Source: an uncultured Coxiellaceae bacterium (lineage in GTDB: Bacteria > Pseudomonadota > Gammaproteobacteria > DSM-16500). From it: a stretch of DNA of 23,646 nt. The position numbers and the translations under genes are program-made. How positions within the stretch are numbered: the stretch's first letter is position 1; every line of letters begins with the position of its first letter. Of the stretch, positions 6,015 to 20,605 are shown piece after piece. A model generated the notes under the pieces. It worked only from the letters and a program-made list of their open reading frames with translations, did not search any database and was not told the origin of the DNA. The stretch covers positions 1-23,646 of the forward strand of contig CAYXNR010000035.1 of assembly GCA_964466595.1 (NCBI GenBank), in the 5' to 3' direction.

Positions 6015-6767
6015 TCAAGCACATTTAAGCCTGTTAGCAACCACATTCTCAGGATTAAAAATTCGAGCTAAGGTTTCGCTCAGTGAATTATTCTGCAAGG
6101 AAACAGAAACATCATTTTCGTTAGCCCACCGTGTGATCATGTCAAACTCTCTTCTCGCCACCGCTTTCAGATTTTCGTCTTGAATATTATCAGGGTTACC
6201 TAAAACTAAAATTAGCTTGTCTGGCTTATTAAATCGCTTTGCTCGAATATCAGCTACAAGCTCCTTGAGGAGCTCAGGACGATTCTTACTGAATTGCCAC
6301 GATAAATAGAGAGGACAGTGTTCTAAGATCATAGGCCGGTCTTGAGTATAGAGATCAATTTTTTGTTCGTCGAGTTCCTTTGATATCTTCTCCAAATGAA
6401 CGGGATTAGTATCGCTGTATAAATATATCAAGGCCCCCTCTCTACACGCCGTTTCTTGCAAAAGGAGGATTTTTTCGGCAAAATTACCTACCGTGATCAT
6501 TTCATTCCATTCAGCCCAAAATTCATCACTTTCCATCGTCTTAATTCCAAATAAAGCTAAAAGCCGTAAGTTAAACGCTTCCCGTGTAATTTCTCCTCGA
6601 TTAAATTGTTCTGATAAAAGGAAGGATTGCTTTTGCAGTTCAGGCGTTAAGCTAAACTCAGCGTTTTCTTCTTTTGCTTTTTTCAGCAGCTTAGCAATAA
6701 ATCCACTTGCATCGACCTTCTCAAGCAACATGCCTAATGATAAAGCGATTCCGACTCGATTTTGCAT
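6015..6767 (-). CDS. Hypothetical protein (250 aa), no recognisable domain
   Basis: Clean ORF with RBS GGAGAG 5-7 nt before the ATG at 6767. It sits between the two toxin loci, and I recognised no motif. Confidence 0.55.
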   Translation of the reverse strand: MQNRVGIALSLGMLLEKVDASGFIAKLLKKAKEENAEFSLTPELQKQSFLLSEQFNRGEITREAFNLRLLALFGIKTMESDEFWAEWNEMITVGNFAEKILLLQETACREGALIYLYSDTNPVHLEKISKELDEQKIDLYTQDRPMILEHCPLYLSWQFSKNRPELLKELVADIRAKRFNKPDKLILVLGNPDNIQDENLKAVARREFDMITRWANENDVSVSLQNNSLSETLARIFNPENVVANRLKCA

Positions 6768-6932: not shown

Positions 6933-7262
6933 TTGGAAGTGAATCGAGGGGACTTAGTAACGGTAGCTTTGCCGGAGGATTATGGAAAACCGCGTCCCGC
7001 TTTAGTTATTCAATCAGACTTGTTTGAGGGTCATCCTTCTATCACTCTTCTCCCAATCACAAGCGAGCTCAGAGAAACGCCGCTATTTCGAATTACCGTG
7101 GAACCGACAAAAGAAAATGGACTTCAAAAAAAATCGCAAGTAATGGTGGATAAAGCTCATACGGTTGCGCGCGAAAAGTTAAGCCAGCCTTTCGGAAAAT
7201 TGGACGAAGTCCTCTTGCTCTCCATTAATAGAGCGCTGGTTTTGTTCTTGGGCTTTGCTTGA
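6933..7262 (+). CDS. Orphan type II toxin, PemK/MazF family (no cognate antitoxin ORF upstream)
   Basis: RGDLVTVALPEDYGKPRPALVIQSD, LLPITSE and the C-terminal GKLDEVLLLSINRALVLFLG are typical PemK/Kid features. The 165-bp upstream region has no ORF longer than ~13 codons. Confidence 0.75.
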   Translation: MEVNRGDLVTVALPEDYGKPRPALVIQSDLFEGHPSITLLPITSELRETPLFRITVEPTKENGLQKKSQVMVDKAHTVAREKLSQPFGKLDEVLLLSINRALVLFLGFA

Positions 7263-7275
7263 TTAAGAGGTAAGA

Positions 7276-7299
7276 GTGAAGGTTGAAGACAAGATTTGA
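7276..7299 (+). repeat. Dispersed repeat copy GTGAAGGTTGAAGACAAGATTTGA
   Basis: Exact 22-nt core shared with 8952-8973 and 24/24 identity with the reverse complement of 5195-5218. It lies in the 43-bp gap between the convergent orphan-toxin and Sel1 genes. Confidence 0.85.
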
Positions 7300-7305
7300 G
7301 CTCAC

Positions 7306-12922: not shown

Positions 12923-15061
12923 ATGTGGAGAAAAATTATCCACTTTTCTGATCATGCTCCTAAGAAAGACCTCACCCCCCCTCCGCCGGATGATTTCAAA
13001 TCCCTACTTCTTTATATTCATCATTTAGCCAATCATAAAATGGGATATCCGGTTTCTTTACTCACCTTTCTCGGCTTGATCGATAACCGAGTCTTAGGCA
13101 TCAAACCAGACAGTCTCGCGAATGTCTTACTGAATAACGTGGGCGATCCTTTTAAGGATTCACTCACCTCGCTCATGGAAGTCAAAGGCTTTGAAAGAAA
13201 ACTCATTGCCATTCTTGAAAAATATTATGGTATGGCAGAAGGTGAAGCACGAGGCTATGTCACCACGGGTGGAACAGAAGGCAATTTTGCCGCGCTCTGG
13301 TGGTCTAAACGAAATTTAATTAACACTGCCTTAGCCCAGCTTATTCAAAAAGACGACACAATTAAACTACAAATTACCGAAGAGCAGGAATTAAGAAGTG
13401 CACTAGCCAAAATACCAAATAAAGATTATCCAACGCGCCTACTCCACTTGCAAAAAATTATTGATTTACGCGATGCCATTGTAAAAAATAAAGATATTGT
13501 TCAGCAATTATTAACGCCGACTGTTTTTTATTCAAAAGGCCATACCCATTATTCTGTCCCTAAAATTGCAGAAATCTTGCATCTGAATACGCGTCCCCTC
13601 ATTGCCAATCCAGACGGCTCGATTGATTTACTGAATTTTAAAAAAGAATTACTCTTTCATCTACACGCCCATCCCTACAGCTCTATTATTATAGTCACGA
13701 ACATTGGTACAACAATCACAGGCGCAATCGATGATGTGCCTGGCATCAAGAAAATTCTTGATGCCGCACCACAAAAACCCACTTATACGATTCATATGGA
13801 TGGTGCCTTAACCGGTTTTGTTTTACCCATTCTCAAACCCTTTGGTAAAATTCCCAATTATTTTGAATATCTCGGTGTCAATACCCTAGCCGTTTCCGCC
13901 CATAAGTATCCCGGTCTCTCTCAACCCTGTGGCATTCTTTTGGCTCGAAAACCTTTTTTTGAAAAAGCTTTTGAAAAAAGTGAACGTAGTATTGATTACG
14001 TCGGCGACATTCTGGATGTGACAATTACCGGTTCACGCTCGGGTTTAAATGTACTGATGTTTTATAATGCACTCTGTACCCTTGGCCTAGATAAGGATAA
14101 CAAAAAGTTACAAGCCTTGGTTGATGAAAATCTACATAATGCGAAATACTTATATGATGCCCTCGTAAAAATATATGGCAGCAAATATGTTTCTTATCCT
14201 TATCATTTCAACGTCATTTTTCCAAAACCATCTATGCGTCTCGCTAGAAAATATCAACTCATGCTCACAGGTGGAAATGCAACGATTTGTGTGCTCAGCA
14301 ATGTGACCAAGCAATTAATAGACCAATTTATTAACGATCTTAAATTAGACAAGGAGGAAGTCATGAAAACCATCAACAAGGAACACACTATCTTAACTCT
14401 ACAACAGGAGCATTTTGACTCTGCTAAGGAGCTTTTTATTAAAGCTTTCTGTTATAGCGAACCGGTGACAAAATATCTCGGTATTCAACCCGATGATTTT
14501 GAACCCTTCGCAGAAGCTGTTTTGAAAAAAGCAGCCGCGGATGGTCTCAGCAAAGTAGCCCTCGACAAAAACAAGCAGGTCATCGCCTTTGTTATCGTCG
14601 AAGATTTGGCAGACCCCTTCAAACTGCAGCTCTCGCGCTATCCCCGCATGAAACCTGTCATCAGCTTGTTAAAAGATCTATCCAAGCCCTTTGTAGAAGG
14701 AAAAAAGTTTTTAAAAGGTAAAATAGCTCATTTTTGGCTGGCGGCAGTTGAGCAGGAATTGATGGGCCAGGGCTTATTTAAAAAAGTAAATGGAGAAACC
14801 ATTAAAGGTGTCATCAGTAAAGGTTATGATATTGCTTATGCAGAGTTCACCAGTGAAATTAGCGCAAAAGAAGCGCTACATTTTGATGCGCTGCAATTAT
14901 GCAATAAAATAAAATATGATAGCTATACCCTAGATGGTCAGAAACCTTTTCAGGGTTTAAAAGGAGAGGCTGTTGCCTATGTCGCAGCTATCAAACCGGG
15001 GGTGAAGCTGACTTCTTTGGTGGATTGCTATACACTGGAAACGAGTCCCACTCTTGGATAA
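12923..15061 (+). CDS. Fusion protein: PLP-dependent histidine-decarboxylase-family domain (N) + GNAT N-acetyltransferase, arylalkylamine-NAT-like (C)
   Basis: The N-terminal ~460 aa include GYVTTGGTEGNFAALWW, the HYSV block, NIGTTITGAIDD, PLP-lysine motif SAHKYPGLSQPCGILLA and TITGSRSG. These are colinear with Gram-negative PLP histidine decarboxylases. The C-terminal ~240 aa include VIAFVIVED, AHFWLAAVEQELMGQGL (GNAT motif A, Q/R-x-x-G-x-G/A) and a YAEF block. RBS GGAG lies 6 nt before the ATG. Confidence 0.8.
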   Translation: MWRKIIHFSDHAPKKDLTPPPPDDFKSLLLYIHHLANHKMGYPVSLLTFLGLIDNRVLGIKPDSLANVLLNNVGDPFKDSLTSLMEVKGFERKLIAILEKYYGMAEGEARGYVTTGGTEGNFAALWWSKRNLINTALAQLIQKDDTIKLQITEEQELRSALAKIPNKDYPTRLLHLQKIIDLRDAIVKNKDIVQQLLTPTVFYSKGHTHYSVPKIAEILHLNTRPLIANPDGSIDLLNFKKELLFHLHAHPYSSIIIVTNIGTTITGAIDDVPGIKKILDAAPQKPTYTIHMDGALTGFVLPILKPFGKIPNYFEYLGVNTLAVSAHKYPGLSQPCGILLARKPFFEKAFEKSERSIDYVGDILDVTITGSRSGLNVLMFYNALCTLGLDKDNKKLQALVDENLHNAKYLYDALVKIYGSKYVSYPYHFNVIFPKPSMRLARKYQLMLTGGNATICVLSNVTKQLIDQFINDLKLDKEEVMKTINKEHTILTLQQEHFDSAKELFIKAFCYSEPVTKYLGIQPDDFEPFAEAVLKKAAADGLSKVALDKNKQVIAFVIVEDLADPFKLQLSRYPRMKPVISLLKDLSKPFVEGKKFLKGKIAHFWLAAVEQELMGQGLFKKVNGETIKGVISKGYDIAYAEFTSEISAKEALHFDALQLCNKIKYDSYTLDGQKPFQGLKGEAVAYVAAIKPGVKLTSLVDCYTLETSPTLG

Positions 15062-15073
15062 GCTAGCTACCCT

Positions 15074-17032
15074 ATGGATATAGTTGCCAATCCAAAGCAT
15101 ATCTCGATAGAAGAAAAAAACCAGATCGAGAAACAAGTTCAAATTGATCTGGTTAATCATCTCTACGAGGGCTGTCTGCCCGGCACCTTTAGTGGCCTGG
15201 TAGGCAGCACTGCGCTTTTTCTCGATTACTACGGTTATACACCCAAATCTTTGCTGATCGGCTGGTATGTTATTTTCAACCTAGCCATGGTTGTTTTAAC
15301 CTCTCTGTATTTCATCTATCTTAAAAGACGTTATGTCTTGAGTTATGATGGCTGGGAAAATCTCTATTCTATGGTGATGATGGTCTGTGCCTTCCTCTGG
15401 GTTCCTTGTATCTATTTGCTGCCTGAAGCCTTAACCAGACAAATGATCGGCTTAGTCGGTCTTTTTATCGTCACCAATGGCTATGCCACCGGAACCATTG
15501 GGCAATTTCAATTATGTCTGAAAACCCTCACCATCATCTTTCTTCCTCTCATTGCCTGGTGTTTCTATCAGGGTGGAATTCTTTACAATGTGATTGCTGC
15601 CTATTGTATTACCTATTATATCTTTCTGCTTGGCGCTAACAGACGTAGTACCTTGTGGTTCATTGATTCTCTGAAATTAAAGTTGGAAAACACCCTAGTC
15701 AGCTATCAAGCTAATCATGATCTGCTAACTAACTTACCCAATCAACGCTTATTGCCCCGTTATATTGAATCTGCCATCAATCTCATTAAAAATACGGAAG
15801 ATATTTTTGCTCTCGCTTCTTTTTCCTTGAATCGTATGGAAATGCTCAATGACGGTTTTGGCCATCATGCAGGTAATGCTATCATCCAAATTGTGACCGA
15901 GCGCTTAAAAGCTTTCAGTGAACAGGCTAGCAAAACTGGCACAAAATATTTGCTCACCATCTCGCGCAAAGATACCTTTAATATTCTGATCTTACCCTTG
16001 CATATCAAAGATGCCGAAGAAAAAATCAAAGCACTTTTTTCTATCTTAGATGAGCCTTTCTATCTCGAAAAGAAAGGCATTAAAATGACAGCCAGTATTG
16101 GCATCAGTCTTGCGCCCCGCGATGGGGAAGATGCGGCTACCTTGCTTGTCAATGCCGATGCCGCCATGCTGCAGGCCAAGCAATTTGGTGGCAATCACTT
16201 GGAATTTTATCGCTCTGAAATTAATGCTCAGCACCCCAAGCAATTGGAATTAGAAACCGATTTACATAAGGCTTTGCAGAATAATGAATTCCTACTAAAC
16301 TATCAACCGCTTGTTGAAGCTAAAAGCGGAAAAATTGCCGGCATGGAGGCACTGATTCGCTGGAACCATCCTACCCATGGTTTTATTTCCCCAGCTAGTT
16401 TTATACCGCTCGCAGAAGAAACCGGGCTCATCGTACCCATAGGAGAATGGGTCTTACGCGAAGCCTGCCGACAAGTCCGTCGCTGGCATGAGATGGGTTT
16501 TACCTCGCTACGGGTAGCGGTTAACCTCGCTGAAAAACAGCTCCGGCAAAAAAATATAATCGGCATCATTGAAGGCATTTTGCAAGAAACCGGCTTTAGT
16601 CGGAGCTGTCTTGAGATTGAAATTACTGAAACGGCTATCCTAGATGAAACCCTCGTCCATCTTATTAAACAACTGAAAGAAATCGGCTTGAGTTTATCGG
16701 TCGATGATTTTGGAACAGGCTATTCTGGCCTCAGCTATTTAAAACGTTTTTCGATCGATAAATTAAAAATTGACCAATCTTTTGTCAGAGATATTCCCGG
16801 AAATACGGATAGTATCACCATCGTTTCCGCTATCATTGCCATGACCAAAGAAATGAAAGTGAAAACGGTGGCTGAAGGCGTAGAAAATGAGGAACAATTA
16901 GCTTTCCTGAAATCCAAGGGCTGCGACTATATTCAAGGCTATTATTTTTCTAAACCCTTAAACGCCGAACTATTTACCCAACTCTTATTAAAAAGCAAAG
17001 ACCTTTCAGCAAGTCCCGCTAAAATAGTGTAA
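15074..17032 (+). CDS. Membrane-anchored (>=6 TM) degenerate-GGDEF / EAL c-di-GMP phosphodiesterase
   Basis: The N-terminal ~190 aa are polytopic and hydrophobic. The GGDEF fold has SRKDTF in place of GGDEF. The EAL domain is canonical (EALIRW, DDFGTGYSGLSYL, KIDQSFV, EGVENEEQ). The start lies 12 bp after the upstream gene, indicating an operon. Confidence 0.85.
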   Translation: MDIVANPKHISIEEKNQIEKQVQIDLVNHLYEGCLPGTFSGLVGSTALFLDYYGYTPKSLLIGWYVIFNLAMVVLTSLYFIYLKRRYVLSYDGWENLYSMVMMVCAFLWVPCIYLLPEALTRQMIGLVGLFIVTNGYATGTIGQFQLCLKTLTIIFLPLIAWCFYQGGILYNVIAAYCITYYIFLLGANRRSTLWFIDSLKLKLENTLVSYQANHDLLTNLPNQRLLPRYIESAINLIKNTEDIFALASFSLNRMEMLNDGFGHHAGNAIIQIVTERLKAFSEQASKTGTKYLLTISRKDTFNILILPLHIKDAEEKIKALFSILDEPFYLEKKGIKMTASIGISLAPRDGEDAATLLVNADAAMLQAKQFGGNHLEFYRSEINAQHPKQLELETDLHKALQNNEFLLNYQPLVEAKSGKIAGMEALIRWNHPTHGFISPASFIPLAEETGLIVPIGEWVLREACRQVRRWHEMGFTSLRVAVNLAEKQLRQKNIIGIIEGILQETGFSRSCLEIEITETAILDETLVHLIKQLKEIGLSLSVDDFGTGYSGLSYLKRFSIDKLKIDQSFVRDIPGNTDSITIVSAIIAMTKEMKVKTVAEGVENEEQLAFLKSKGCDYIQGYYFSKPLNAELFTQLLLKSKDLSASPAKIV

Positions 17033-17074: not shown

Positions 17075-18370
17075 ATGAAAGGATTCATTCAAAAATTATT
17101 GCAATTGAGTTCACTCGGCCTACTTGCTGCAGCCTCCTCCTCAGGTTTTGCTGCTGGCTATAAAATGGAATTTCAAAGCGCCTCGGTTTTAGCAGACTCT
17201 GGCGAGGCCGCTGTCGTCGAAGATGCCGGTACCAACTGGTTTAACTCGGCGGGTTTGGTCTATGTGCCCCATCAGGTCGTTGGCTCTCTCATTGACTTGA
17301 TGACGAGAACCACCTTCACGGGTTCTTTAAATGCACCAAACGCTCTTTTTGCAGGTAGCTTTAATGCCAATGGCAGCGCTCATTCTTTTCATAGTACCCT
17401 CCTGCCAGCCCTTCATTATGCCCTTCCTTTTAAAGATCGTTTTGCCGTAGGCTTAAGTATTGTCCCAGCTTGGGGGCTTGCTGAAGATTATGGCCGCAGT
17501 TCTTTTGTTCGCTATCAACTCACGCGGGTTTATACCAAATCAATTGATGTCGCACCCAGTATTGCTATCAAAATTAATAAGCAATGGTCCGTGGGTGTTG
17601 GTCCCGATTTTAATTATCTTTCTCTTCAAAGCCGCTTCGATGGTAACTTGGCTTATCCGCTTGTCAATGATGCAGTCTCTCGAATCTCTGCCGATGATTG
17701 GAATACGGGCTGGCATGCCGGTCTTTTATACCGTCTGAGTGAGGCCACTCGCTTTGGTCTGAATTATCGCTCTAAGATTGTGATGCATTTGACAGGCACC
17801 AGTGGGCTTTTTGGTGTCGGTTTTGCTACGCCCGAAACGAATGCTTTCACTTTTAATTGGGTCTTACCGCCGATTACAACGCTTTCAGCTTATCATGACT
17901 TATCGCCTTGTTGGGCACTCATGGGTACCATTTCCTATGATCAATGGAGTACCCTTCGCAGCTATAGTATACAAAATTATATGTCAGCTACGGGTCCAAC
18001 ACCTGTTTCACTGCCGCAAGGTTTTCGTAACACCTTTGATTTAGGGATAGGCGCACATTATCGTCTCAATGAAAAATGGCTGCTGCGTGGTAATCTGAAA
18101 TATGAACCCACCCCAACGGGCGATCTTCATCGCGATATTAACTTTCCGGATGCTGATAAACTCGGCGTGCAAATTGGCGGACGCTATCAGTTCACGAAAT
18201 GTTTAGCTGTGGACTTTCTGTATGGACATGTATTTACGAAATCAGTACCTATCAGACCCCAAATGGCTGTGTATCCAGGGACGACCACACCGATCACGGG
18301 TGTGACGATCAATGGCCACAGTACAACCAGTATTGATTTGATCGGCGCTCAGTTAGTGTGGAATATTTAG
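17075..18370 (+). CDS. FadL/OmpP1/TodX-family outer-membrane hydrophobic-compound channel
   Basis: Signal peptide MKGFIQKLLQLSSLGLLAAASSSGFAAGY. FadL-type N-terminal hatch motif and beta-barrel-like alternating pattern. RBS AAGGAGA present. Confidence 0.8.
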   Translation: MKGFIQKLLQLSSLGLLAAASSSGFAAGYKMEFQSASVLADSGEAAVVEDAGTNWFNSAGLVYVPHQVVGSLIDLMTRTTFTGSLNAPNALFAGSFNANGSAHSFHSTLLPALHYALPFKDRFAVGLSIVPAWGLAEDYGRSSFVRYQLTRVYTKSIDVAPSIAIKINKQWSVGVGPDFNYLSLQSRFDGNLAYPLVNDAVSRISADDWNTGWHAGLLYRLSEATRFGLNYRSKIVMHLTGTSGLFGVGFATPETNAFTFNWVLPPITTLSAYHDLSPCWALMGTISYDQWSTLRSYSIQNYMSATGPTPVSLPQGFRNTFDLGIGAHYRLNEKWLLRGNLKYEPTPTGDLHRDINFPDADKLGVQIGGRYQFTKCLAVDFLYGHVFTKSVPIRPQMAVYPGTTTPITGVTINGHSTTSIDLIGAQLVWNI

Positions 18371-19564: not shown

Positions 19565-20521
19565 CTATATACGTCTTTGTCTCTTTGCAGATGCCTCATC
19601 CCAGTATTGAGGATCTAAGAAACTTTCAACTACTGCTTTCTCTTCTCGCTGCGCTTGTTGAACTTGGCGTTGGTGAGCTTGTAGCAATCGATAAGCTTGA
19701 TATGCTTGTTGCTGTCTTCGAGCTTGTAGCTCCGCTTGTTGCGCTTGATTAGCTTCCTGCACTTGCTGAGCTAGTATGCGATCTACGTATTTCACCCATA
19801 AATTCAGTCGATCCTCTAATTCAGGCGTCAAAGAAGGATTAGACTGCAATGAAGCCAATTCATGCATCAATACAGGACATTCACCCATACATCGATTCAA
19901 ATCAACCAAAAATTTACTTAGCCGATTTGCCTCTTGCGGTTGAAGTTCATTAGAATTGATCTTGCTCATTAACTGGGTTGCTATTTGAGTGATATGGTTT
20001 ATTTTTTTCGCGACAGCTACAAATGGATCTGCTATCTCATTTGCAAGTGGTGTACTGGAAGCTGGCTGCTCATTTGCAGGCATTGCGCTTGACCCTAACT
20101 CCGCCGGTACAGCAGCTGCACTTGAGACTGACTGCTCATTTGCAAGTGGCGCACTGGAAGCTGGCTGCTCATTTACAGGCATTGCGCTTGACCCTAACTC
20201 CGCCGGTACAGCAGCTGCACTTGAGACTGACTGCTCATTTGCAGCCGCTCCGCTTGAAGCTGGTAATTCCTTGTTTAAAGATTCATTTTGCCATTTTTTT
20301 CTCTCGTTTAAAGCTTCATCTTTCCATTTTTTTCTTAATAAGCGCATTTTATATGCACCTAAGGTAATCGTACCAAGACCCCCATGCTCCACAAGCTCTC
20401 CTGTATTCTCATCCACCATTTGCCTTTGCTTCTCCCTAAAGTTCACCCTTGAGGCGGTCTGATTGTGCTTTTTAGGCTCGCTATCATGCTTTAACACTTC
20501 TTTTCTTTTTCTGTTTAACAT
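19565..20521 (-). CDS. Gln/Ala-rich coiled-coil protein, paralog 1 of tandem family (one module; NLS-like basic clusters)
   Basis: Begins MLNRKRKE (ATG at 20521, RBS GGAG 6 nt upstream). It shares the GGLGTIT region with the other two paralogs. It contains an in-frame ~99-bp duplication, a QQAELQARRQQQAYQAY coiled-coil segment and the C-terminus ...DEASAKRQRRI. Confidence 0.7.
   Translation of the reverse strand: MLNRKRKEVLKHDSEPKKHNQTASRVNFREKQRQMVDENTGELVEHGGLGTITLGAYKMRLLRKKWKDEALNERKKWQNESLNKELPASSGAAANEQSVSSAAAVPAELGSSAMPVNEQPASSAPLANEQSVSSAAAVPAELGSSAMPANEQPASSTPLANEIADPFVAVAKKINHITQIATQLMSKINSNELQPQEANRLSKFLVDLNRCMGECPVLMHELASLQSNPSLTPELEDRLNLWVKYVDRILAQQVQEANQAQQAELQARRQQQAYQAYRLLQAHQRQVQQAQREEKAVVESFLDPQYWDEASAKRQRRI
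20039..20237 (-). repeat. In-frame ~99-bp tandem duplication inside paralog 1 (encodes NEQSVSSAAAVPAELGSSAMPVNEQPASSAPLA x2)
   Basis: Near-identical DNA at 20039-20137 and 20138-20236 with a few substitutions. Confidence 0.8.
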
Positions 20522-20605
20522 ACACATCTCCAATAATTTTAGGTTTAAAGGCTCATCAGGCAGAGAAACAAAGAGCTTGATCTTTGTTTCTTGCTGCTCT
20601 TGACT

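Follow-up and report, generated by a model that had tools for sequence, protein, structure and literature searches.

A predicted decarboxylase and N-acyltransferase fusion in a conserved neighbourhood with c-di-GMP phosphodiesterases in Coxiellaceae

In a stretch of 23,646 nucleotides from an uncultured Coxiellaceae bacterium (contig CAYXNR010000035.1; this whole stretch is called the window here), one open reading frame joins two well-known enzyme classes in a single chain, a PLP-dependent amino-acid decarboxylase and a GNAT-type N-acyltransferase. This raises the question of which product such a protein would make and why its gene lies next to c-di-GMP enzymes. A decarboxylase followed by an N-acyltransferase is a sequence of steps familiar from melatonin and from insect amine metabolism. 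Our preferred reading, with a probability of roughly 0.6, is a two-step N-acyl amine synthase that forms the core of a conserved phosphodiesterase/FadL module, the amide being coupled to c-di-GMP.

The fusion gene and its decarboxylase domain

12923-15061, plus strand: fusion ORF of 712 aa, group II PLP amino-acid decarboxylase and GNAT amine N-acyltransferase resembling insect-type AANATs (iAANATs)
12923-14362, plus strand: decarboxylase domain, residues 1-480, of the HDC/SerDC/AlaDC clade (alignments, invariant catalytic residues)
13046-13054, plus strand: Y42-P43-V44, the Y-P-x specificity motif (V44 invariant in the family)
13310-13504, plus strand: 65-residue insertion, residues 130-194, after GGTEGN..WWSKR (alignment, AF2 model)
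13904-13906, plus strand: codon of K328, the Schiff-base lysine in S-A-H-K (alignment, residue role)
14351-14365, plus strand: Shine-Dalgarno AAGGAGG (14351-14357) and in-frame ATG (14363-14365, M481) (nucleotide conservation in orthologues)
14363-15058, plus strand: GNAT domain, residues 481-712, of the insect-type AANAT/Ebony-C/A654L clade (structure and profile searches)
14459-14464, plus strand: Glu513-Pro514, predicted general base (invariant, aligned with Dat)
14747-14776, plus strand: GNAT motif A, residues 609-618 (family alignment)

Full-length homologues of the 712-aa protein form more than 120 clusters, which come from uncultured Coxiellaceae and Legionellales and from Aquicella siphonis. 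Since all of them carry the fused architecture, a frameshift or assembly artefact, considered in an earlier note on this DNA, is ruled out. The ORF is real, and its description there as a single-chain fusion of a PLP decarboxylase with an AANAT-like GNAT is confirmed. A literature search on the fusion, on N-acetylhistamine enzymes, on Aquicella decarboxylases and on bacterial iAANATs returned nothing relevant. This agrees with the statement that no characterised bacterial enzyme has such an architecture, of which no published description was found. The AF2 monomer model of all 712 residues reached a pTM of 0.47, with residues 1-90 and the catalytic loop disordered, so that its domain arrangement is unreliable and channelling cannot be judged from it. 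Group II decarboxylases are obligate homodimers that share an active site, and disorder of residues 1-90 is expected in a monomer model of a dimer-clamp segment.

The decarboxylase domain matches its Pfam family with 42.3 bits (gathering score 27) over residues 195-418. Residues G117-T118, H209, T263/T264, D293, A295, H327-K328, Y359 and S371, which bind PLP or take part in catalysis, are invariant in 32 sequences. Their roles were mapped by alignment onto residues named for this family (PMC11407765). They comprise the Schiff-base Lys in S-x-H-K, the Asp at N1 of PLP, the His stacked on the ring, the phosphate-binding G-T and Ser, and the Tyr of the catalytic loop. On this basis residues 1-480 are predicted to form a group II PLP decarboxylase that has an intact catalytic site and belongs to the HDC/SerDC clade.

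Gene neighbourhood and the link to c-di-GMP

11474-12805, minus strand: divergent paralogous protein with degenerate GGDEF (EGDQY) and EAL domains, whose position upstream of the fusion is conserved among close relatives
12806-12922, no strand: divergent intergenic region of 117 nt, with no Rfam element and promoter-like matches at chance level
15074-17032, plus strand: constant partner, a membrane protein with degenerate GGDEF and EAL domains (domain and helix prediction)
17075-18370, plus strand: FadL/Toluene_X channel of the outer membrane for hydrophobic molecules, often part of the module

As proposed earlier, the fusion gene stands first in a cluster that also encodes an EAL phosphodiesterase and a FadL channel; the genes are tightly spaced and the cluster is conserved. 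The partner protein, 652 aa long, is predicted to span the membrane with about six helices (residues ~36-190) and carries a degenerate GGDEF domain (SRKDTF) and an intact EAL domain (EALIR, DDFGTG); it is predicted to be a membrane-bound c-di-GMP phosphodiesterase. No Rfam element was found in the whole window, and therefore no riboswitch precedes the fusion. Between positions 11300 and 19500 predicted promoters and terminators occur in numbers expected by chance, and the two short intergenic gaps are empty.

Decarboxylase, GNAT (fused or split), membrane phosphodiesterase with degenerate GGDEF and FadL channel constitute a module that persists through gene shuffling. Through every rearrangement the enzyme is accompanied by the same phosphodiesterase orthologue; FadL does not stand where expected in part of the loci (L004, L011, L023, L027). 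Elsewhere the same GNAT is fused directly to EAL domains. This neighbourhood, resistant to shuffling, and the EAL-GNAT fusions make the link to c-di-GMP phosphodiesterases the strongest feature of the system, one that the earlier note had missed. The conserved neighbourhood demonstrates a functional link, yet does not tell which side acts on the other: instead of its product being sensed, the enzyme could be under the control of c-di-GMP or of the phosphodiesterase.

For the two-step synthase we infer the following course. The N-terminal PLP decarboxylase would remove the alpha-carboxyl group of an amino acid to yield a primary amine, onto which the GNAT domain would transfer an acyl group from acyl-CoA or another acyl-phosphopantetheine thioester. 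The product is most likely an N-acyl (possibly N-acetyl) amine. The order of decarboxylation before N-acylation, already given in the earlier note, is upheld as the sole chemically sensible one. Acetyl as the acyl group, also assumed there, is one possibility, and a longer hydrophobic chain is equally conceivable, because FadL and the surroundings of an orthologous decarboxylase in Odyssella, whose gene adjoins an acyl-AMP ligase/carrier (ACP)/condensation set and a glycosyltransferase gene, fit a longer chain at least as well. The amide, or a fatty-acyl precursor of it, would pass the outer membrane through FadL. Sensing of either compound by the membrane phosphodiesterase would then tie amide production to the c-di-GMP level.

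The same genes could serve the synthesis of membrane lipids. FadL would import fatty acids, the N-acyl amine lipid would be a structural or adaptive component of the membrane, and the c-di-GMP enzymes would merely be co-regulated with envelope remodelling. The FadL gene in the module and the gene set beside the Odyssella orthologue are in line with this, as is the ability of iAANATs to make fatty-acid amides. One EAL-GNAT fusion gene (L032) also has a fadE-fadA-fadB operon next to it, together with a FadL gene. We consider membrane-lipid synthesis unlikely nevertheless, since it leaves both the repeated GNAT-EAL fusions and the constancy of the phosphodiesterase orthologue unexplained, and the module contains no other conserved genes for lipid modification. 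A general connection of EAL-GNAT fusions with beta-oxidation was rejected, as the arrangement of L032 is not repeated in L033-L035.

Chemical communication in Coxiellaceae and Legionellales is barely known. As a tentative extension of the two-step synthase, held at well below even odds, the module may represent a new system for cell-cell communication or environment sensing in Coxiellaceae and amoeba-associated relatives. A hydrophobic N-acyl amine, made by the decarboxylase-GNAT protein, would act as autoinducer, pass through FadL and, by binding to a dedicated multi-pass membrane phosphodiesterase, lower c-di-GMP. The EAL-GNAT proteins would unite the system in one polypeptide, their GNAT fold having perhaps turned into a ligand-binding or ligand-consuming input domain of the phosphodiesterase. 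In outline the coupling of amide production to c-di-GMP, in the preferred reading as in this extension, resembles RpfF-RpfR, where the gene of the DSF/BDSF synthase, which makes a lipid-like molecule, adjoins the gene of a GGDEF-EAL receptor (PMC6361424). The phosphodiesterase output of RpfR sets c-di-GMP, and the two proteins are physically linked via the FI domain (PMC6361424), to which the EAL-GNAT fusions form a parallel. The likeness would be one of logic only. RpfF is a crotonase with no homology to the decarboxylase and GNAT found here, and RpfR senses with a PAS domain, whereas the partner protein has an unrelated multi-pass membrane domain without PAS; a crotonase synthase and a PAS-GGDEF-EAL receptor with FI domain are thus both absent. 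Moreover, the product of RpfF is a fatty acid while an amide is predicted here, for which signalling is entirely inferred.

Three aspects have apparently not been described before: that insect-type AANATs have a bacterial branch firmly coupled, as a fusion or within an operon, with a decarboxylase of its own; that this branch is tied to c-di-GMP phosphodiesterases through surviving neighbourhood and EAL-GNAT fusions; and that a FadL channel accompanies it. Together they are suggestive of a so far undescribed module for small-molecule signalling in bacteria related to Coxiella and Legionella. Should the product be a signal, Coxiellaceae/Legionellales would possess a new class of signal connected directly to c-di-GMP, and the GNAT would be a novel kind of input domain in EAL enzymes. 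The prediction can be tested directly, since Aquicella siphonis can be cultivated and has an intact cluster.

The GNAT domain: enzyme or regulator

When searched in isolation against Pfam, including PF00583 and related GNAT models, the C-terminal domain (residues 481-712) remained without a match up to E = 10, so that its assignment relies on structure and profile searches. More distant fusion relatives do match PF00583, below threshold. The domain model (pLDDT 92) gave several hundred GNAT matches, and fold as well as motif A (Q/R-x-x-G-x-G/A) are those of a GNAT. Its nearest relatives are Dat, agmatine and polyamine N-acyltransferases, the C-terminal domain of Ebony and chlorovirus A654L, and members of this clade are closer in structure and sequence than any other GNAT. 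A search of a viral fold library added one match, which is A654L-like. The earlier designation as an AANAT-like GNAT thus holds for the fold and for the insect-type clade, but not for the expected Pfam match. Vertebrate AANAT (serotonin N-acetyltransferase), its comparator at that time, shows no specific similarity above generic GNATs. From sequence and model, the domain is predicted to be an amine N-acyltransferase of the insect-type AANAT clade.

E513-P514 is invariant and aligns with E47-P48 of Dat in the (D)EP(LN) motif, whose Glu acts as general base in iAANATs (PMC6070697). The preceding Asp is not conserved and is replaced by Ser, as in A654L; the D46A chain of 8WMB reads ffkAEPl at this motif. 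Insect-type enzymes (Dat/AANAT1, 3TE4; AgmNAT, 5K9N; Aedes aaNAT2, 4FD5; Tribolium, 6V3T) share 14-18% identity with the bacterial domain. The latter differs from them by its S-E-P-[IV]-T motif without an equivalent of Asp46, by its fusion or operonic association with a decarboxylase that would make its substrate, and by its link to c-di-GMP enzymes. A654L of PBCV-1 (3QB8) is a standalone viral polyamine acetyltransferase of 197 aa, without decarboxylase fusion or c-di-GMP context. The amine-selecting condensation domain of Ebony (6DYM) is eukaryotic, and its fused A-T didomain supplies the acyl group (beta-alanyl-S-carrier), whereas the fused partner here would supply the amine. By cluster look-up, an Ebony-like protein representing another fusion type comes from the eukaryote Spumella.

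The GNAT domain might instead be mainly a regulator that binds acyl-CoA or an amine and controls the attached decarboxylase or, in the fusions, the EAL phosphodiesterase, with little or no amide being formed. In two EAL-GNAT fusions (P0163, P0155) neither the catalytic Glu nor the motif A G-x-G is left, which shows that the fold can be employed without catalysis. In the window protein and its closest relatives, Met occupies the Arg/Gln position of motif A (M-G-Q-G-L; family consensus R-G-x-G-L). Against this, E513, P514, G615, G617, T643 and S647 are invariant (T643 and S647 among them) or at least 90% conserved in the decarboxylase-linked family at 59-82% identity. These residues are also retained in the standalone and split GNATs and in the fusions P0134 and P0135. 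Conservation of this kind is what an active enzyme typically shows, and it makes a mainly regulatory role improbable.

At the boundary between decarboxylase and GNAT, AAGGAGG lies 5 nt upstream of the in-frame ATG, and both are conserved in orthologues at the nucleotide level. Probably a free GNAT of ~26 kDa is also translated from this internal start.

Substrate of the decarboxylase

The N-terminal domain had been taken for a histidine decarboxylase, and the fusion for an enzyme making N-acetylhistamine or, with a drifted specificity, an N-acetyl-arylalkylamine, exported by FadL as a host signal or formed in detoxification of host amines. The protein is indeed colinear with HDCs, and the HDC equivalog NF002748 is its best NCBIfam model (E 1e-63); iAANAT relatives acetylate arylalkylamines and the Ebony C-domain accepts histamine. 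The match to NF002748, however, reaches 215 bits and stays under the cut-off of 305 bits, and plant Ala/Ser decarboxylases score above HDC. HDCs (K. aerogenes Hdc, A. baumannii BasG, P. phosphoreum 7ERV) and the plant enzymes (8JG7, 8JIJ) belong to the same clade, are colinear and share all PLP and catalytic-loop residues with the fusion, but identity is about 31% (31-32% to Hdc and BasG). In the Y-P-x motif, x is Glu in true HDCs, Tyr in SerDC, Phe in AlaDC and Val here, its role being established for SerDC/AlaDC and extrapolated to HDC. The 65-residue insertion, which the model places inside a pair of long helices (H137-163, H169-197; pLDDT >90), is absent from HDC and SerDC and, with a further N-terminal insertion of 9 aa, departs from the insertion-free HDC architecture of ~380 aa. 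In the place of the plant-type C-terminal zinc finger, which is missing, the fusion has the GNAT domain.

The gene context also differs. Klebsiella hdc adjoins an antiporter and hisS, while neither a histidine/histamine antiporter nor siderophore genes were found in the window or in ~25 related loci. Judged by these characters the domain is not an HDC orthologue, and its substrate is probably neither histidine nor serine. N-acetylhistamine as product accordingly loses its ground and has little probability; as a hydrophilic compound it could do without a FadL-type channel. Nothing found relates to a host, so that FadL exit of an acetylated amine, a host-directed signal and host-amine detoxification find no support. 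Biosynthesis of a histamine-type siderophore was rejected because the module lacks NRPS and monooxygenase genes. Amino-acid decarboxylases take part in acid resistance of Coxiellaceae relatives (bioRxiv 10.1101/2022.10.26.513839), but a system of this kind, in which decarboxylation uses up protons and acetylation neutralises the amine, is very improbable and was rejected, since an amino-acid/amine antiporter occurs in none of the ~25 loci examined and such a system would leave FadL and the c-di-GMP enzymes without a role. Even on a conservative reading, these results correct the misleading annotation of many database entries as histidine decarboxylase.

Two predicted enzymes in one chain

The ORF of 712 aa at 12923-15061 (+) runs without interruption through the window. 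Among the 330 proteins that a homology search with this ORF retrieved, the top 120 clusters are about 705 aa long with 96-100% query coverage and 59-82% identity. The recurrence of this architecture rules out an artefact and confirms that decarboxylase and GNAT lie in one polypeptide, as observed in an earlier note. Every sequence block quoted there is found in the ORF and aligns with enzymes that are authentic or have solved structures. The 18 genome loci that were recovered all belong to uncultured Coxiellaceae/Legionellales MAGs. An orthologue is also present in the cultivated Aquicella siphonis, where it is annotated as "histidine decarboxylase". These homologues place the origin of the window in an Aquicella-like bacterium of the Coxiellaceae.

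The sole Pfam match on the ORF is PF00282 (residues 195-418, 42.3 bits, cut-off 27), and by its sequence the N-terminal domain (residues 1-480) belongs to the group II decarboxylases. Residue roles were transferred from the plant enzymes CsAlaDC and AtSerDC (PMC11407765) by alignment, and invariance was scored in 32 homologues.

Cofactor and catalytic residues of the decarboxylase domain, all invariant in 32 homologues
K328 and H327: Schiff-base pair
H209: stacks on the PLP ring
D293 and A295: among the cofactor and catalytic residues
G117-T118, T263/T264 and S371: phosphate and O3 contacts
Y359: catalytic-loop proton donor

Since all of these residues are present and invariant, the domain should be a true decarboxylase. 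In plant aromatic amino-acid decarboxylases, a Phe replacing the catalytic-loop Tyr would signal an aldehyde synthase.

For the C-terminal domain (residues 481-712), Pfam gave zero matches even at E = 10. We therefore rely on a confident AF2 model from 18 homologues (pLDDT 92.2, pTM 0.87). Foldseek against the PDB placed the chlorovirus polyamine acetyltransferase A654L first (E 5.5e-15), together with the Ebony C-terminal condensation domain (7.7e-14) and Drosophila dopamine N-acetyltransferase (~1e-12). The top group also holds mosquito aaNAT2 and aaNAT5b, agmatine N-acetyltransferase and a Tribolium N-acyltransferase; generic GNATs first appear at rank 24. Sequence profiles independently concur with the fold (A654L 2e-13, aaNAT2 8e-11, Dat 1e-5, Ebony 3e-5). 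T643 and S647 align with the Ser pair of Dat, which has been proposed as catalytic. Motif A is R-G-x-G-L in the GNAT family and M-G-Q-G-L in the window. The invariant E513-P514 aligns with the Glu-Pro of the "DEPLN" motif of insect-type arylalkylamine N-acyltransferases (iAANATs), in a register fixed by the D46A mutant chain 8WMB, which reads ffkAEPl. In characterised iAANATs this Glu serves as general base or binds the amine (PMC6070697). By model and profile the domain is a member of the iAANAT clade. The earlier description as "AANAT-like" was right in substance, but the closest relatives are insect-type and not the vertebrate enzyme that had been aligned by eye; membership in the vertebrate AANATs was rejected.

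In silico, a decarboxylase and an amine N-acyltransferase, both predicted to be competent, thus share one chain. Decarboxylation would come first and the product amine would then be acylated, because PLP decarboxylation needs a free alpha-amino group. We assign a probability of about 0.75 to this enzymatic core, in which an amino acid is turned into an amine and then into an N-acyl amine.

Substrate of the decarboxylase

The N-terminal domain had been taken for an enzyme of the histidine decarboxylase (HDC) type. Its top NCBIfam model is NF002748 (histidine decarboxylase), which scores 215 bits against an equivalog cut-off of 305 bits. With the family profile, the best PDB matches are tea alanine decarboxylase (E 2e-48) and Arabidopsis serine decarboxylase (E 2e-43); Photobacterium HDC comes after these plant enzymes (E 9e-41), followed by MfnA, MetDC and GAD. 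K. aerogenes Hdc and A. baumannii BasG are 31-32% identical to the domain and carry Y-P-E, whereas the window family has Y-P-V with an invariant V44. In the plant enzymes, the third residue of Y-P-x determines specificity for Ser (Tyr) or Ala (Phe). Directly after GGTEGN..WWSKR the window enzyme has an insertion of 65 residues, which lies within two long, confidently modelled helices (predicted H137-163 and H169-197). Score, motif, insertion and low identity all speak against the HDC assignment. Judged on these features the enzyme is not an HDC orthologue, and both His and Ser are unlikely substrates. Of the earlier interpretation the general enzymatic core is likely, but its histidine/N-acetylhistamine identity is now quite improbable. 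Farther fusion relatives show Y-P-T, F-P-T, Y-P-G or Y-P-E instead, which may mean that the family uses several substrates.

Split genes and a start signal within the fusion

Decarboxylase (~480-530 aa) and GNAT (~223-252 aa) are separate adjacent genes at four loci (L002, L003, L028 and L030). In L002 the decarboxylase gene stops at TAA, followed by GAGGAGG and a start codon. In the fused ORFs, the linker carries a canonical Shine-Dalgarno (SD) sequence a few nt 5' of a nearly invariant in-frame Met, exactly at the domain boundary. The window has these features:

14351-14357 (+): internal SD AAGGAGG, within GAC AAG GAG GAA GTC ATG
14363-14365 (+): internal ATG (M481), in frame with the fusion ORF

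AGGAG or GGGAG with ATG occurs at the boundary in 17/17 scorable orthologues. The loci with this signal are L001, L005-L016, L018 and L019, and the distant fusions L026 and L027 likewise have SD and ATG at the matching position. With a stricter SD(4-9 nt)ATG pattern, 16 of 20 ORFs give a single match, in each case at the boundary, and the other four give none. Although AAG makes up only 22% of Lys codons and GAG only 24% of Glu codons in the fusion genes, the boundary site is nearly always xAG-GAG, which runs counter to their codon preference. Synonymous sites should have reached saturation at ~60% protein identity, and the conserved SD is therefore comparative evidence of selection at the nucleotide level. 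We infer that the fusion arose through loss of a stop codon. Retention of ribosome binding site and start suggests that free GNAT is still translated from the same mRNA.

Association with a predicted membrane phosphodiesterase and a FadL channel

The fusion is flanked in the window by the following genes:

11474-12805 (-): paralogous GGDEF-EAL gene, upstream and divergently transcribed
15074-17032 (+): GGDEF-EAL protein of 652 aa, 12 nt after the fusion
17075-18370 (+): FadL/Toluene_X channel, 42 nt further on

When the ORFs of 19 related loci were surveyed by BLAST, the downstream GGDEF-EAL gene was present in 19/19, the upstream paralogue in all 18 loci reaching upstream, and FadL directly next in 14 of the 16 extending far enough. 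The outer flanks vary, with SPFH and CAAX-protease genes in the window versus SMC/ligase and PRK/Smr genes in Aquicella. At L023 the fusion is followed by an extra standalone GNAT paralogue (7001-7693, 230 aa, P0123) before the downstream GGDEF-EAL gene, and FadL is absent from this locus. Among relatives of only ~40-45% identity the gene order is shuffled, and the same parts recur:

Gene order in shuffled loci
L026: GGDEF-EAL (-), FadL (+), fusion (+)
L027: fusion (+), GGDEF-EAL (+)
L028: FadL (-), decarboxylase (+), GNAT (+), GGDEF-EAL (+)
L030: two GGDEF-EAL genes, decarboxylase, GNAT, GGDEF-EAL, FadL

The partner in these loci is always a full-length orthologue of the 652-aa protein (40-65% identity, residues ~1 to ~645). 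In silico, the fusion is obligatorily associated with this phosphodiesterase and usually with FadL. [quoted passage not shown] On these grounds the protein is predicted to be a c-di-GMP phosphodiesterase that is embedded in the membrane and lacks cyclase activity. The upstream paralogue is 443 aa long in the window, ~447 aa in L001 and ~578-584 aa in Aquicella and others; an N-terminal extension of ~140 aa has been lost in the lineage of the window. In the window the GGDEF motif of this paralogue reads EGDQY, and DHFGAG takes the place of DDFGTG.

The acyl group may be acetyl or a longer chain, and three observations make a hydrophobic product or precursor somewhat more likely. The module contains FadL, a type of channel that conducts hydrophobic molecules. 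In the amoeba symbiont Candidatus Odyssella acanthamoebae (CP008941, 8001-13380; L029), the orthologous decarboxylase is standalone (42% identical, with Y-P-V and the helical insertion) and adjoins genes for an acyl-AMP-ligase-like protein, a carrier protein and a condensation domain, with a phosphopantetheinyl transferase and a glycosyltransferase close by. The arrangement resembles a small gene cluster for an N-acyl amine, with different, non-homologous acylation machinery. Finally, some iAANATs form fatty-acid amides from long-chain acyl-CoAs (PMC6070697).

A profile of the GNAT domain, searched exhaustively, gave 1,224 representative clusters (518 at E <= 1e-10), mostly standalone proteins of 205-260 aa. 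By Pfam, the long matches carry N-terminally other PLP decarboxylases (P0133, P0145, P0181, P0247), an ATP-grasp domain, an alpha/beta hydrolase or EAL (P0134, P0135, P0136, P0155, P0163, P0169 and fragment P0151). P0219 from the eukaryotic chrysophyte Spumella vulgaris (EukProt) combines AMP-binding, PP-binding and GNAT, an Ebony-like A-T architecture outside insects. P0133 (L026, 7001-9331) ends in ~100 aa of a long W-Q-N-Q-G/P repeat tail (GDWQNQPGWQNQG...), and its linker has a similar short W/N/G-rich insert.

The EAL-GNAT architecture comprises about 20 clusters at 90% identity (also P0277-P0293; loci L022 and L032-L035). Its EAL domain is consistently closer to the downstream phosphodiesterase of the module (42-46% identity, 224-255 bits) than to the upstream paralogue (35-40%, 179-206 bits). 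P0134 and P0135 keep Glu-Pro and G-x-G; in P0163 and P0155 the former is Gly-Pro and the latter is missing, so the fold is probably a non-catalytic input domain in some fusions. In L032 the gene directly follows fadE-fadA-fadB, with a FadL gene close by; the fadE-fadA-fadB neighbourhood does not recur in L033-L035. A carbon-nitrogen hydrolase gene, which could encode an amidase, comes next in L033 and L034. In one MAG (UBA4722) the module (L018) occurs together with an EAL-GNAT fusion (L034). Gene fusion and conserved neighbourhood, two independent lines, thus both point to cooperation of the GNAT clade with the downstream type of phosphodiesterase.

The amide, or a fatty-acyl precursor imported by FadL, would be the ligand of the membrane domain of the phosphodiesterase, and sensing would tie its level to c-di-GMP. 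We hold this signalling role only tentatively; if it is true, the module is a new signalling system. The phosphodiesterase may instead control the enzyme rather than sense its product, or the product may be a structural lipid. For the signalling role, the nearest precedent in function is the RpfF-RpfR pair (PMC6361424): the gene for the lipid-signal synthase lies next to that for a GGDEF-EAL receptor, and the receptor binds the synthase physically. FadL proteins are also reported to modulate long-chain AHL signalling in rhizobia (PMC9938287). Both cases are alike in logic only, the proteins being unrelated.

In the literature, with subscription journals thinly covered, no description was found of the fusion, of a decarboxylase-coupled bacterial enzyme of the iAANAT type, or of the module. 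Both domains fall in known superfamilies; new are their combination, the link to a c-di-GMP phosphodiesterase, the EAL-GNAT fusions and the conserved internal ribosome binding site.

Elsewhere in the window, the SPFH/Band-7 protein at 9654-11432 (+) has four tandem N-terminal repeats of ~10 aa (GREPAQSSIV, GREPAQPSIV, EREPAQPSIV, ERKPAPSVV). Five ORFs on the minus strand are without Pfam domains (6015-6767, 7306-8850, 19565-20533, 20606-22426 and 22497-23429), one of them with a duplicated Ser/Ala/Gln-rich segment of ~40 aa and a Gln-rich C-terminus. These ORFs look like the orphan effector-like genes that Legionellales typically carry.
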